From a candidate division WOR-3 bacterium (lineage in GTDB: Bacteria > Hydrothermota > Tepidihabitantia > Tepidihabitantales > Tepidihabitantaceae), in the NCBI GenBank assembly GCA_026418295.1, contig JAOABP010000001.1:96094-160093 (forward strand): a DNA stretch of 64,000 bases, in the 5' to 3' direction. The translations under genes and the position numbers were made by a program. Positions within the stretch are counted from its first letter, which is position 1; every line of letters starts with the position of its first letter. The notes beneath the pieces were generated by a model. It worked only from the letters and a program-made list of their open reading frames with translations, made no database searches and was not told the DNA's origin. Positions 10,603 through 61,809 of this stretch are shown here, in pieces.

Positions 10603-11399
10603 ATCTTGCCGAAGGAATCAAAGACCCAGCTTCCCTGCTCCTGCCGGAGATAGAGCTCCAGACTGCGGTAGCGCCGGAGTGCCGATCTGCCGGCAGGGGA
10701 AACCGGATAGAAGTCAACCACCGCCAGTGCCAGCGTGCCGAAGATCCGCAGCTGACCCAGCTGGAGGAAGTAGGGGATGGTGCGGGGCAGGCGGGTTCGG
10801 GGGTCAAGCTCGGCGCTCAGCCAGCGGACCGGACGGGAGCGGAGGAAGGAGAGTGATTCCGGAGGAAAGAGGGGCTGAAGGATGAATATCGTATCGGGCA
10901 GATTCAGGCGCTGAGCACGGATTCTTTTCAGGCTTTCGTAGCCGAGCGCATGGTCCAGTGCCGCCAGTGCCAGCTGGCGCATTGCCGGTGTGTCCCGGGA
11001 GCCGAACTGGAAATCCGGGTTCAGGATATTGGAGATCCAGACAAGCTGCCAGCCGGAGTCGGAAAAGAGCCAGTTCTGATACAGATAGTCGTTTTCCTCC
11101 TCACCGGCAAAGCGGAGATAGGTGGATACATGGGCACCCCGGCCCCGGGTATCAACCACCTGCGGCTGGATCCGGTTGATGCGCCGGTTCTGATGCCAGA
11201 CCCGGACCGCGGAGTCAAAGCGGGCAAACGGGATCTCCCGGCGGAATGCGGGCACAAACAGCCGGTAGATGGTCCGGCTGTCGCCGTTGACCAGGGCGTT
11301 GCACACCTGCTGCACCTTGAGTTCAAGCTGATATTCCGGCTTGGGTTCGGTTGCCCAGACCGCGGTCAGGGCAAAGAGTAGAGGGTAGATTTTCAGCAA
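10596..11399 (-). CDS. Secreted hypothetical protein (NTF2-like N-terminal region possible)
   Basis: 267-aa ORF with signal-peptide-like N-terminus; TTG start abuts the tRNA-Asp 3' end; overlaps the next gene. Confidence 0.6.
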   Translation of the reverse strand: MLKIYPLLFALTAVWATEPKPEYQLELKVQQVCNALVNGDSRTIYRLFVPAFRREIPFARFDSAVRVWHQNRRINRIQPQVVDTRGRGAHVSTYLRFAGEEENDYLYQNWLFSDSGWQLVWISNILNPDFQFGSRDTPAMRQLALAALDHALGYESLKRIRAQRLNLPDTIFILQPLFPPESLSFLRSRPVRWLSAELDPRTRLPRTIPYFLQLGQLRIFGTLALAVVDFYPVSPAGRSALRRYRSLELYLRQEQGSWVFDSFGKIW

Positions 11400-11474
11400 C
11401 GGGCCCGACCAGATTTGAACTGGCGATCTTCGCCGTGACAGGGCGACGTGTTAACCAGGCTACACTACGGGCCC
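11400..11474 (-). tRNA. tRNA-Asp(GTC), CCA not encoded
   Basis: GGGCCCGTAGTGTAGCCTGGTTAACACGTCGCCCTGTCACGGCGAAGATCGCCAGTTCAAATCTGGTCGGGCCCG cloverleaf; upstream TTGACA promoter. Confidence 0.95.
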
Positions 11475-11584
11475 GATGTTTAATGATAATAAATTTACCC
11501 CTGAATGTCAAATAGGTTTAACAAGGTTTGTTTGACTGCTGCCCGGCGCACAATATAATTGACTGAAGCAAACTGGAGGCAAAT

Positions 11585-56445: not shown

Positions 56446-56518
56446 TGGTGGCGAAGGGAGTCGAACCCCTGACCCGTGGATTATGATTCCACTGCTCTGC
56501 CAGCTGAGCTACGCCACC
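56446..56518 (-). tRNA. tRNA-Met(CAT), elongator-type, CCA not encoded
   Basis: GGTGGCGTAGCTCAGCTGGCAGAGCAGTGGAATCATAATCCACGGGTCAGGGGTTCGACTCCCTTCGCCACCA cloverleaf with paired G1-C72. Confidence 0.93.
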
Positions 56519-56631
56519 CGTTTTCAGATTTTAATTATCGGCAGGTTCAAGTCAACCTGCGCCGAGCCGGGCTGTTCGTTGACAGCGGAGCAATGTTTTT
56601 TAAGATATTACAAACCTGAAAGGAGGTATTA

Positions 56632-58854
56632 TTGAAGAGGCTACTGGTGATCGTTAGCGTCTGTTTCGGTTTACTGCTGGCACTCTGGACACCAGTCGGT
56701 CCTGGTGGTGGTAATGTGTATTCGGGTGACATCAGCAATACCAACCCGGCGGTGATCTACTTTGCCCCCTATAACAGCTCCACGCGGCTGGTAAAATCGA
56801 CTGATGAAGGGACAACCTGGGTTCAGACTACGGGTGTGCTTTCCGGTTATGTTTATGATCTGCTGGTTCATCCTGCCGATCCCAGTATCGTTTATGCCTG
56901 TCTCGGTTCTTCAATTTACAGGACAACTGACGGCGGTGCATCCTGGATGCGGTTGAATACCCCCAGTTCCAACTACTTCCGGGAGATGGCGTTCAATCCG
57001 CAAAATCCGAATGTGATCTATGCTACGGGATATTACTATGGCGCCAGCCCCTATAAGCAGGTGCTGGTCCGAAGTGATGATGGTGGCAATACCTGGTCTG
57101 CCTTTTATTTTGATACGACAACGACCAACGCCTATGGTTATTCCCTGGCAATTGATCCGGTTGATACTGCCACCGTTTATGTCGGCGGCTACCGGGCTTC
57201 GGGTTTGACGACGCTCCATCGCTCCTCAGACCGGGGTCAGACCTGGGAGGAGCTGCCGTTCGGCATCAGCGGTTATTATCCATATGCGATCTATATCAGT
57301 CCGGCAAATTCGAATCTGATTTTTGTAGCACCCTATACCAGCGGTATCTACCGTTCAACCGACCGGGGTCAGACCTGGACGCGGGTAACCAGTCTGGCTG
57401 CGGTTTACCGGCTCACCGGGGCATCCGGCAACCCGGCGGTGCTTTATGCCTCTACCAGCGGCAGTGTGTATCGCAGTCAGGATACCGGACGGACCTGGAC
57501 AGTTGTCAACCGCGGTCTGTCAGGCACCCCTAATTTCTGCCTGATGAGCAATCCGAACAGCCCGCCGACGGTATATGTCGGGACCAAAACCGGCCTGTTC
57601 CGGTCAGCCAATTATGGTGATACCTGGGAGAATCTGATTGAAGAGCTGTTCCTCAGTCAGGTCAAGGTGGTGGCGCTGGCAGATGATCCGGCGACCCTCT
57701 ATGTGGAGTGTCTGAACGATGGTGTGTATAAATCAACTGATAACGGGTCTACCTGGCGTCGCTGTCCGGATTTTCTCTCCTGCGGGAATATCATCTCCAT
57801 TGCGGTCGATCCGCGCGATCCGCTGACCGTCTGGGCGCTGGAAGGTTCGGGTTGAGGAAACGCCGAGCTCTTCAGGAGCACAGACGGCGGGTCCGTCTGG
57901 ACACAGATTGAAAGTTATCTTGGCGACGGTGCGGCAGTTGCCATGTCACCGGACAACCCTGAGGTAATTTTCACCTGCGGATACGGGTATATCAATAACG
58001 CCTACCGGATTCAGACCTCCTACACAACTGATAACGGTACCACCTGGATCCGGGATACAATCATGGATTCAATTGCCCGGGTGAATGCGTGCATTTTTGA
58101 TCCGTTTGTCCCGAACCGGATTCTGCTGGGCGGAGATTCGATCTACAATTACAAACTGCTGCTGGTGAGTACCGATCTCGGCAATACCTGGGAACATACC
58201 GGCAATGGCCTGAGCGGAATTGTCTATTCGCTGGCCGCTTCTGTCCGGACTCCGGGTCTGATGTATGCGGGCACCAGTCAGGGGTTTTACCGTTCAACTG
58301 ACGGCGGTGCCAGCTGGAACCGGACCGGCACCTTTACCATGGTCCGTTCGGTCGTAATTGACCCTGCAAATGACAGTTTAATCTATGCGGGCACAAGTAC
58401 AGGAATTTTCCGGACGAGTGATGGCGGTGCAACCTGGGTGCAGGACAACGAGGGTCTGGAGGTAACTGACATCCTGACACTGGCGTTCCGGGGCAGTGCG
58501 CCACGGATGATATTTGCCGGCACCAATGGCGGCGGAGTCTATGTCACTACACCACCGACCGGGATTGGTGAGGTGCAGTCAGGGGCTGCCTTCAGACCGG
58601 CGAAACTGCAGGTGCTGCCCAATCCAGTCCGGGGTGAATTTCAGGTTTTCGTCGATGGCGATGCGGGAGAACTGGTTCAGGGTGCGATCTATGATCCTAG
58701 TGGCAGGCTTGTGCATACGCTGACACCTCAGATCGCCGGCAGCGGCAGAGTGCACTGGCTGGTGAATATGCGGGGTTGCGGTAAAGGGGTGTATTTCCTG
58801 CGGGTCCAGGCTCGAACCGGAGAGGTTACCGGCAGGGTGGTTCTGACCGATTAG
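56632..58854 (+). CDS. Secreted BNR/Asp-box (VPS10/Ycf48-like) beta-propeller protein with T9SS-type CTD, containing one in-frame UGA (57853-57855)
   Basis: SD AGGAGGT + TTG, signal peptide; S/T-x-D-x-G-x-x-W repeats continue in frame across the UGA; CTD VLPNP...IYDPSGRLV...GVYFLRV; 740 aa if read through. Confidence 0.7.
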
Positions 58855-59898: not shown

Positions 59899-61680
59899 TT
59901 AATGGACTACGCTGAAGGGAATGGTCAGCACCTCGCCGTTGGCTTCTGCTCTGATGAAGTAAACACCGGGAACGAGTCCGGCAGCATCAAATCGCAATGA
60001 ATGTCTGCCCGCACCGGTTTCGCCATTATAGATGGTGGTAACCAGCCGGCCGCTCCGGTCAAAGAGCTGCACGGTGAGGCGTGCCGGGTTTTCAACTGTG
60101 TAGTGGAGCCAGCCGGTCCGGTTGAGCGGGTTTGGGGTCACATTAAGGATATTTTCCTCCATAATCAGCCGGCGCTGTTCAGCAATTCCGGTCCAGTCGG
60201 TCCGGTCAAAATAGGCTGCCCGGTACTGCGGTGCATTCCAGGTGAGATAAAGCACACCATAGGCGTTGCCGCCGAGATACTCAATTGCCGGATGGTTCCA
60301 GTAGGGTTCGTGGTCCGCGACCGAAACCGGAGTGCTCCAGATACCGCTGTAGCGCCGCCAGACATACCTGAGCTCCCGCGGGTTGGAGTAGTAGCGGTAG
60401 ATAATCGCCGAGCCACCTCCTTCGCGTAATGCGACATCCGGTGATTCGGAGCGTATCGTTGAGTCGCCGCCCACATGGAGGTAGTACCAGGTTGAGCCCG
60501 GATTGCCACCCTGGTAGTTAACAAGATAGCGGACATGGTCGACAACAGCACCCGGGTACACGAAGGCACAGAGCACCGTATCACGCCAGGCACCGATTGC
60601 GGTATTGCAACTAGCCGCTGCCGGGTCGCTCGGATAGGAAATGAATGTCCGCCAGCCGGTTCCACGCCGGCCCACGATTTTAACATTGTTGTCAGTGGCA
60701 ACATAGGAACACCAGATGAAGGTGCTGTCATAACCTTCGTTGCAGGTGGCGTCAATACCGTGCCGGGCGTCGGTAATTCCAGGGTCTGGTGTTGAATCCC
60801 AGGAAACCGCTGAGGTGTCATCCCAGTAGTAACGGATTTTGCCGGAATAAAGCAGTGGCAGGATGTACAGCCGGTTGTCATAAAAGTCCTGATTTGCACA
60901 GATGGCGATCTGAAAGATGGAATCGGCACCTGAATACTCGGCAACGTTCACAAAATTCTGCCCGCCCTGAAAGAGGTGCTCGGCACCATTACTGGCGTAA
61001 CAGCGGCGCAGCCGGAGAATACTGTGGTTAGGTGCATGTTCATAGGTGACATAGCAGTCTGCACCCAGAACCGCAGCATTCACCGCCAGGACCGGAAATA
61101 CTGCCCACCAGGTAAAAGTTTCGGACCAGCTTGTGCCGCCATTGGTAGAAATATTCATTGACCAGCACCAGGTTCCTCCTTCGGTATATGCCAGCACCGC
61201 AAGCAGGTTGCCGGATGCCCGATGGATGTCCAGCTGGATGCAGTAGATTGAATCCCGGTTTCCAACCCGGACATCATTACCCCAGTCGGTGCCGACCGTC
61301 GGAATCGGCTCCCTCCAGGAACAGCCAATCGAAATGAACTGAGGATTTACCAGTCGGGAAAGCTCCTCAAACAGGTTAAGCGCATGCTCAAAATTGCCGT
61401 TATTCCAGGTTTCCTGAATCAGCCGGGCTAATGCCAGTGCCTCATTGGAGGCAGCTGCGGGCAGTTCGACACTGATACAGGCATTGGTTCGTTCCGCAGC
61501 TGTCAGCCGGGCAAGCCTGCGCCAGGCGGGTACCGGTACTGCAGGTTGTCCGGTGATATCCTGACGGGCATCTGAGAGATCAGCGGTGTGTTCCCCAGCG
61601 ACCGGGAATACCACCGGCAGCTCCTGCGCAGCAGCAATCGTTGCGATCAGGAGCACCGCGATCAGTTTCATGGGTTTCAT
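59899..61680 (-). CDS. Secreted beta-rich (propeller-like) protein with T9SS-type CTD
   Basis: SD AGGAG + ATG 61680, signal peptide; STNGGTSW Asp-box; CTD VTPNP...LFDRSGRLV...GVYFIR. Confidence 0.7.
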   Translation of the reverse strand: MKPMKLIAVLLIATIAAAQELPVVFPVAGEHTADLSDARQDITGQPAVPVPAWRRLARLTAAERTNACISVELPAAASNEALALARLIQETWNNGNFEHALNLFEELSRLVNPQFISIGCSWREPIPTVGTDWGNDVRVGNRDSIYCIQLDIHRASGNLLAVLAYTEGGTWCWSMNISTNGGTSWSETFTWWAVFPVLAVNAAVLGADCYVTYEHAPNHSILRLRRCYASNGAEHLFQGGQNFVNVAEYSGADSIFQIAICANQDFYDNRLYILPLLYSGKIRYYWDDTSAVSWDSTPDPGITDARHGIDATCNEGYDSTFIWCSYVATDNNVKIVGRRGTGWRTFISYPSDPAAASCNTAIGAWRDTVLCAFVYPGAVVDHVRYLVNYQGGNPGSTWYYLHVGGDSTIRSESPDVALREGGGSAIIYRYYSNPRELRYVWRRYSGIWSTPVSVADHEPYWNHPAIEYLGGNAYGVLYLTWNAPQYRAAYFDRTDWTGIAEQRRLIMEENILNVTPNPLNRTGWLHYTVENPARLTVQLFDRSGRLVTTIYNGETGAGRHSLRFDAAGLVPGVYFIRAEANGEVLTIPFSVVH

Positions 61681-61809
61681 ATGACTCTCCTTTTTAAGGG
61701 TTCCGGCATCTTCATCTCCTCTCGCCCAATTATAACCATAAGACAATATTTGTCAATAGGTTTTATCCGCCCGGCAGCTCACAGAATCCGGAGCTGGTCG
61801 TGGTGATGA

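Follow-up and report, generated by a model that had tools for sequence, protein, structure and literature searches.

A predicted selenoprotein family of secreted, type IX-sorted twin beta-propellers in candidate division WOR-3 bacteria

The gene described here lies in a 64,000-nucleotide stretch of contig JAOABP010000001.1 (positions 96,094 to 160,093, forward strand) from the genome of a candidate division WOR-3 bacterium (GCA_026418295.1; 1.8 Mb, 96.7% complete). This whole stretch is called the window, and positions are counted from its first letter. Two open reading frames (ORFs) on the forward strand, 56632-57855 (407 amino acids) and 57943-58854 (303 amino acids), share one frame, and the first-pass annotation had claimed that a TGA at 57853-57855 is the sole interruption between them. 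Readthrough translation of 56632-58854 confirmed this, giving 740 residues with that single internal stop, followed by TAG. The UGA stands in the context WALEGSG-*-GNAELFRSTDGGSVW and is proposed to encode selenocysteine (Sec, U) as residue 408 of a secreted selenoprotein, composed of a signal peptide, a twin seven-bladed BNR/Asp-box propeller, a linker and a C-terminal sorting domain of the type IX secretion system (T9SS). A sequencing error had also been considered in the first pass; however, three further DNA runs (X7, X8 and X10), drawn from two studies, have contigs that span position 57853 without differences, and the TGA is therefore in the DNA and is not an error of assembly.

The N-terminus resembles a signal peptide (approximately residues 1-19, 56632-56688); the hydrophobic stretch was judged by eye, and the structure model described below gives residues 2-15 as a helix of low predicted local distance difference test (pLDDT) score. 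The protein matched PF15902 (Sortilin-Vps10) with 152.4 bits against a cut-off of 33 and PF02012 (BNR) with 52.2 bits against 27. The T9SS type A sorting domain (residues 662-737, 58615-58842) was recognized by TIGR04183 at 27.9 bits against a cut-off of 23, and Pfam PF18962 gave 24.5 bits, below its cut-off of 27. The sorting domain is found only in the second half, downstream of the stop, and the signal peptide in the first, as had been annotated. The genome also encodes the T9SS translocon gene SprA (478 bits summed over its frame), and with the signal-peptide-like N-terminus and the type A sorting domain, the three features by which a T9SS cargo is recognized are present. The second half was said to have no ribosome binding site of its own, and indeed no GGAGG-like motif could be read by eye before ATG 57943. 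The Shine-Dalgarno sequence AGGAGG of the full-length gene is found at 56621-56626, 5 nt before its TTG start codon.

An AlphaFold2 model built on 23 family members had a mean pLDDT of 88.7 and placed a beta-sandwich at residues 659-738 after a low-confidence linker (residues 644-656). The top Foldseek matches of the model were GH74 enzymes (E = 8e-27, TMq of about 0.62), and the TMq was 0.59-0.63 to more than 15 GH74 entries. The GH74 xyloglucanases (5fkq, 2ebs, 2cn2) likewise consist of two tandem seven-bladed BNR propellers, and the profile match to the GH74 enzyme 4lgn had an E value of 4e-37. However, the identity is 17-20%, and the GH74 enzymes have no selenocysteine, no Cys/Sec pair and no T9SS domain. 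Catalysis in GH74 depends on two Asp residues in the inter-domain cleft. Profile alignments intended to place U408 relative to the catalytic Asp were out of register across the repeats and no mapping was obtained; the protein was not filed under GH74. The NCBIfam model NF045728 (F510_1955 family glycosylhydrolase) scored 230 bits against a cut-off of 175, but because the match falls into six stretches on a 246-position profile, the score is considered to be driven by the repeats.

The model places the UGA inside a blade of the second propeller, between two of its strands. In the first pass, the 29 codons from the UGA to ATG 57943 had been read as an intact Asp-box blade; conservation and alignment bear this out, as these codons complete such a blade and no other part of the protein is as well conserved. 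A protein ending at the UGA would therefore have a broken domain, and the sorting domain would also be lost. Apart from the Gly and Trp residues of the Asp boxes, the residues that are invariant among 23 selenocysteine-bearing proteins are C384, G385, E404, G407, U408, G409 and L413, which cluster at one blade. U408, in the motif E-G-S/K-G-U-G-x-A-E-L-F, is modelled in a loop of eight residues flanked by strands 400-404 and 413-416, and Glu404 (57841-57843) ends the first of these strands. Cys384 (TGC, 57781-57783), 24 residues before the selenocysteine and invariant in 23 of 23 aligned proteins, lies just before strand 387-392. The three upstream cysteines pointed out in the first pass are present as C362, C377 and C384, but only C384 is invariant across the family.

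Conservation of the UGA was followed in related genomes, metagenomes and a wider set of species genomes. TGA is conserved at the identical alignment column in 84 homologous frames checked, at identities down to about 30%, and TAA and TAG do not occur there in any of these 84 frames. The relatives (L019-L038 and L053-L058) together with a paralogue in the same genome account for 27 of the 84, namely 19 orthologous loci (85-38% identity), one partial contig that starts at the TGA and seven members of a second paralogue group (about 33%). The codon was also found in 18 of the 18 class-level homologues fetched (30-37% identity), and in 14 of 15 metagenome relatives. When 185,579 species genomes were scanned, 25 of the 80 loci considered had it too, the other 55 loci being mostly distant propellers without the motif. 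Two further genes, L221 and L222, carry TGA at the column as well. The sequences are mutually related, and these counts are not independent events. Nevertheless, at 30% protein identity synonymous sites are saturated and yet the stop codon survives, which argues that the UGA is under selection. The orthologue comparison proposed in the first pass thus came out in favour of retention, the codon being GGA in one copy, which is frameshifted.

Among 41 relatives, dozens of homologous frames of full length were recovered, each with one in-frame TGA. When 272 genomes of the phylum were searched, the family was matched in 70 genomes from 28 genera. Exactly one in-frame TGA was present in 131 of the 146 frames listed, two had a TGA plus further stops and 13 had no TGA, several of these 13 being partial matches that do not span residue 408. 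The labels of the TGA-bearing homologues from the scan of species genomes include Candidatus Stahlbacteria, candidate division Hyd24-12 bacterium, Candidatus Fermentibacteraceae and Candidatus Fermentibacterales, and on the basis of these labels the family extends to a second candidate phylum. Up to seven TGA-bearing frames were found in one genome (G010). Head-to-tail arrays of two or three TGA-bearing members were observed at G150:C29:5087-12115 (three members), G205:C225:1078-5685 and G191:C1:823740-828334. A record labelled Thermoplasmatales archaeon SM1-50 (L161) contains a TGA-bearing member of this bacterial T9SS family; its contig may be misbinned.

The genome itself carries a second TGA-bearing member, on the reverse strand at G000:C10:154532-156676, with 33% identity and an identical second hairpin (helix 2, described below), as well as a TGA-less paralogue without the selenocysteine loop (G000:C8:448649-450742, reverse strand). 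The T9SS-sorted BNR, Sortilin-Vps10 or 'Ycf48-related' paralogues of the same genomes have the same architecture, length and sorting domain at 27-32% identity. In contrast to the selenocysteine-bearing members, these paralogues, which have no TGA, lack the seven-residue GxGUGxA loop and Cys384, and in the alignment the GxGUG loop and Cys384 are both missing from 15 TGA-less paralogues.

Two short hairpins follow the UGA. Helix 1 (57867-57879) starts 11 nt after the UGA and consists of GCUC, a variable 5-nt loop and GAGC; it is supported by covariation and by codon constraint. Helix 2 (57881-57899), the proposed core of a selenocysteine insertion sequence (SECIS), has a 7-bp stem and the loop CGGGU, in which the GG is invariant. 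The corresponding DNA, cagacgg-CGGGT-ccgtctg, gave a folding energy of -9.3 kcal/mol with z = -2.98 relative to shuffled sequences. The first-pass annotation had placed the loop of this hairpin 32 nt after the UGA with G at its second position, and both observations were correct. The published model of the bacterial SECIS (bSECIS) specifies a loop of 3-9 nt, a stem of 4-16 bp, G in the first two loop positions, a distance of 16-37 nt from the UGA and a minimum free energy of -7.5 kcal/mol or lower (PMC13188914, section 5). Helix 2 lies within every one of these limits, with its 5-nt loop, 7-bp stem, G at loop position 2 followed by a second G, 32-nt spacing and energy of -9.3 kcal/mol.

Both hairpins covary, and the RNA structure is under selection. 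In an alignment of 43 sequences, 6 of the 11 base pairs showed changes on both sides, and 94.7% of the cells were paired as compared with 24-42% when the partners were slid; the observed covariation score was reached by none of 500 shuffles. In helix 1, three of four pairs changed on both sides and 97.1% of the cells were paired, an example being GCUU/AAGC in two genes. In helix 2, three of seven pairs changed on both sides and 93.4% were paired; the substitutions were G-C to A-U in eight sequences, A-U to G-C or C-G in three and C-G to U-A in one, and some of these pair changes also alter amino acids. The conservation of the 3' hairpin, which had been put forward as a check, is therefore accompanied by compensatory changes. 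A second fold suggested in the first pass, cgccg/gctc..gagc/cggcg, is the minimum-energy structure of the 60-nt stretch (-23.7 kcal/mol) and was upheld in part: its inner GCUC/GAGC helix, which is helix 1, covaries, but the outer cgccg/cggcg stem (alignment columns 15-19 with 39-43) had both-side changes in none of its five pairs and is unsupported, though not excluded.

The nucleotides that follow the UGA are conserved far beyond the requirement of the protein. Protein-level constraint was controlled for by taking columns conserved in at least 90% of sequences; the mean codon entropy of such columns from U+1 to U+16 was 0.66 bits, as compared with 1.40 bits for 68 conserved columns elsewhere in the genes. 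None of 5000 amino-acid-matched resamples had an entropy this low, and codons GAG, CTC, AGC and GGC were fixed in 22-24 of 24 genes.

The machinery for decoding UGA as selenocysteine is present in the genome. The search for sel genes suggested in the first pass recovered all four: selA (568 bits), selB (382), selD (334, with an in-frame TGA of its own) and selC, the tRNA-Sec (74), each over its curated cut-off. Furthermore, selA was found in 68 of the 70 phylum genomes with a family match; one of the two exceptions is a 74%-complete genome and the other has a single match without TGA. TGA is also the commonest ordinary stop codon in this genome, ending 620 of 1269 open frames of at least 250 codons, and genome-wide recoding of UGA is therefore excluded. 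An ab initio list of in-frame TGAs (1230 candidates) was too noisy to serve as a census of the selenoproteome, and the stop-codon tally alone was used. The TGA-containing selD directly adjoins selB on the same strand, outside the window (G000:C8:322172-325012), and many relatives have two copies of selD, one with a TGA and one without.

Known selenoprotein genes offer a close parallel. As in this gene, the FdhF/FdhA and SelD genes have an in-frame UGA, an apical loop within 16-37 nt and G in the first two loop positions; in selD of the same genome the UGA is followed after 18 nt by the single hairpin GCGC-AGUUA-GCGC. Unlike the known genes with a SECIS inside the ORF, the present family has two covarying hairpins rather than one, and Cys orthologues are essentially absent. 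The proposed decoding mechanism is the ordinary bacterial one; the family stands out by its fold and route of export, by the scarcity of Cys forms, by its copy number and by having two hairpins.

From the sequence evidence as a whole, we assign a probability of roughly 85% to the reading that 56632-58854 is a selenoprotein gene with one secreted product, selenium incorporation being predicted. Most likely, the UGA is the hallmark of a large family of selenoproteins from uncultured bacteria of the WOR-3 and Fermentibacteria type. In the proposed mechanism, SelB with GTP and Sec-tRNA(Sec) would be recruited by a SECIS within the ORF, just 3' of the UGA at 57853-57855. The core of the element would be the hairpin with the invariant GG in its apical loop, and the other conserved hairpin would precede it. 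Selenocysteine would be inserted as residue 408, and the ribosome would go on to the TAG at 58852. The product would then be exported by the Sec translocon, fold into the GH74-like pair of propellers and be passed to the T9SS by means of its C-terminal sorting domain.

General propeller geometry, rather than coordinates, would place Cys384 and U408 near each other on the active-site face. The predicted functional centre consists of the enlarged U408 loop, between strands two and three of the blade, with Cys384, just ahead of strand one, and Glu404. The site is most likely a redox-active or nucleophilic Cys/Sec pair with a substrate outside the cell; binding of a metal or metalloid ranks second and a purely structural selenylsulfide third.

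Several observations weigh against the selenoprotein reading. The main text of the deep-Sep paper (PMC12013277) describes selenoproteins as normally having numerous Cys homologues, but no Cys orthologue was present among the best 120 of 274 matches from a targeted search of 5.8 billion protein clusters. The sole protein with a Cys aligned to U408 is the colinear orphan P0114 (29% identity); it was counted in favour of selenocysteine, but no relatives of P0114 are on record. The weightiest counter-evidence comes from two genes of Candidatus Aegiribacteria (L178 and L188), which keep the motif and have GCT (Ala) and TTC (Phe), respectively, at the column. Both retain all 7 pairs of helix 2 and, with a compensatory change, 3 of the 4 pairs of helix 1, and the RNA structure is therefore not strictly tied to the UGA. 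The hairpins of these genes are either 'fossil' SECIS elements or an RNA element with a further role. Both Aegiribacteria genomes encode selA, and in one of them there is a TGA-bearing paralogue as well; in L188, the residue just before the selenocysteine column is a Cys (GTCFG). Furthermore, the protein P0061 has Leu at the column, the loop being intact apart from this, and the Cys has been lost; one metagenome copy (P0173, gene L113) has GGA (Gly).

The Gly copy was not accepted as a refuting case. It has a +1 frameshift approximately 520 nt upstream of the GGA codon and is either a decaying copy or poorly assembled; the five nearest species homologues all have one in-frame TGA, and the other 14 of the 15 metagenome relatives have TGA at the column. 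Regarding the RNA, helix 1 is foreign to the canonical bSECIS model and its loop is often without a G, and when the sequence is folded by itself, the minimum-energy structure has the 5' arm of helix 2 paired with another segment. Additionally, an Rfam scan of the whole 64-kb window at gathering thresholds found two tRNAs and no SECIS family, a result that is uninformative either way.

The first-pass annotation had left the choice between a selenocysteine-containing propeller and a readthrough switch. Every test that was run favours selenocysteine, and a functional isoform without the C-terminal domain (CTD) is unlikely given that the UGA lies inside a blade. The possibility was nevertheless considered that the hairpins slow or reposition the ribosome so that a near-cognate tRNA sometimes reads the UGA without selenocysteine, giving a short CTD-less and a long CTD-bearing product. 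The retention of the hairpins in the two UGA-less homologues is consistent with this, as they could then have a role other than the recruitment of SelB, and so are the failure to find a Cys orthologue and the rare relatives that tolerate Ala, Phe, Leu or Gly in place of the selenocysteine. However, selA is present in every genome with a TGA-bearing copy that is complete enough to judge, helix 2 satisfies all parts of the bSECIS model, and the short product would end inside a propeller blade. Moreover, the UGA was swapped for no other stop codon in the frames checked, and Cys384 and Glu404, which flank the site, do not vary, but disappear along with it from the loop-less paralogues, which argues for a specific functional residue. 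Readthrough without selenocysteine is thus considered improbable, although it is the most credible of the alternatives.

If instead the UGA were a true stop and the downstream part were translated by re-initiation or translational coupling at ATG 57943, the locus would hold two genes. Public gene callers do annotate N-terminal halves of 407-408 residues and C-terminal halves of about 306. Yet the 29 intervening codons are the best conserved of the protein and complete the Asp-box blade, and the split would cut through a single modelled blade; the ATG is not preceded by a Shine-Dalgarno-like motif, and the frame is kept in all homologues. Two separate genes are accordingly given very little weight. 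That the stop arose by a recent nonsense mutation, marks a pseudogene or stems from a sequencing error has in its favour the bare presence of the codon, and was counted as already refuted by the occurrence of the same codon in 84 frames from two candidate phyla and in three independent assemblies of the organism. The same verdict was reached for a reassignment of UGA throughout the genome, to Gly or Trp for instance. The GGA found in one relative would suit a Gly reading, but that copy is frameshifted, the genes neighbouring the selenoprotein gene are intact under translation table 11 and nearly half of the long open frames, as counted above, end in TGA. Both of these last explanations are regarded as extremely improbable.

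As far as checked, the selenoprotein family is undescribed. The search for bacterial selenoproteins leans heavily on Sec/Cys pairs and thioredoxin-like redox motifs. The present family has neither, which is probably why public gene calls split it, why no NCBIfam selenoprotein model matches it and why it is missing from the catalogue discussed below. The public gene calls break it at the UGA into N-terminal halves of 405-440 residues, ending at the UGA position, and C-terminal halves of about 306, which are named 'YCF48-related', 'hypothetical' or not at all. No selenoprotein model of NCBIfam release 20 gave a match.

Most characterized selenoproteins have a thioredoxin-like fold (PMC13188914, section 7), in contrast to the beta-propeller found here. 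The 119 selenoprotein families listed in Table 1 of that 2026 review include no BNR, Sortilin or propeller protein and no T9SS cargo, and BNR, propeller, sortilin, T9SS and WOR-3 are unmentioned in the review. The extracytoplasmic entries of the catalogue are an FCYXU-type TonB-dependent receptor, the GSU2204/MtrB-PioB outer-membrane barrel, the ExtKL cytochrome and a selenobacteriocin (PMC13188914, Table 1). Like the protein described here, these four predicted selenoproteins leave the cytoplasm, but their folds are unrelated and none is a propeller or a T9SS cargo. The selenobacteriocin and the present family have the motif SGUG in common, which at four residues implies no homology. The main texts of the BSepDB (PMC13326102) and deep-Sep (PMC12013277) papers do not mention BNR, propeller, sortilin or WOR-3, although their supplementary family tables could list the family. 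A full-text search of the literature returned nothing relevant that joins selenoproteins with BNR, propellers, T9SS or WOR-3.

A more far-reaching picture may be drawn, which is put forward tentatively and is considered less likely than not. The proteins would form an obligate-selenium family of extracellular enzymes, which the T9SS would display or release and whose GH74-like twin propeller would bear a Cys384/Glu404/Sec408 centre on its active-site face. Such a family would have essentially no Cys version and up to seven copies per genome, tandem arrays included, in WOR-3 and Fermentibacteria-type bacteria, and its two-hairpin RNA would be kept in paralogues that lost the UGA. The two-hairpin element may also have a second role beyond the recruitment of SelB, for example as a translational pause between the propellers. 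If the selenoprotein reading is correct, selenium biology would gain a new fold and a new cellular address, that of a T9SS cargo, together with a numerous family in two uncultured candidate phyla, with an in-frame TGA in 133 of the 146 frames listed in the phylum search. Hundreds of truncated gene models would be corrected, and the invariant Cys/Glu/Sec site on a scaffold resembling polysaccharide hydrolases would be a target for new selenium-dependent extracellular chemistry.

Upstream of the gene, a promoter-like site (TTGACA, a 16-nt spacer and TAAGAT; 56579-56606, forward strand) lies 26 nt 5' of the start codon; it is a match to the consensus and not functional evidence. A contig of the RNA run X20 was rejected as evidence of expression, as it matches only 57873-57918 and then diverges, representing the conserved block of a relative. 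The neighbouring genes are housekeeping genes. A conserved partner gene was sought, and only local synteny among close relatives was found, such as a XerC-like gene in 7 of 19 loci. A tRNA-Met gene is located on the opposite strand at 56446-56518, 113 nt upstream of the selenoprotein gene, and a tRNA-Asp gene at 11399-11475. Finally, a 615-residue ORF on the reverse strand (59902-61746) has no Pfam match, and its C-terminus resembles a T9SS-type sorting tail by eye.

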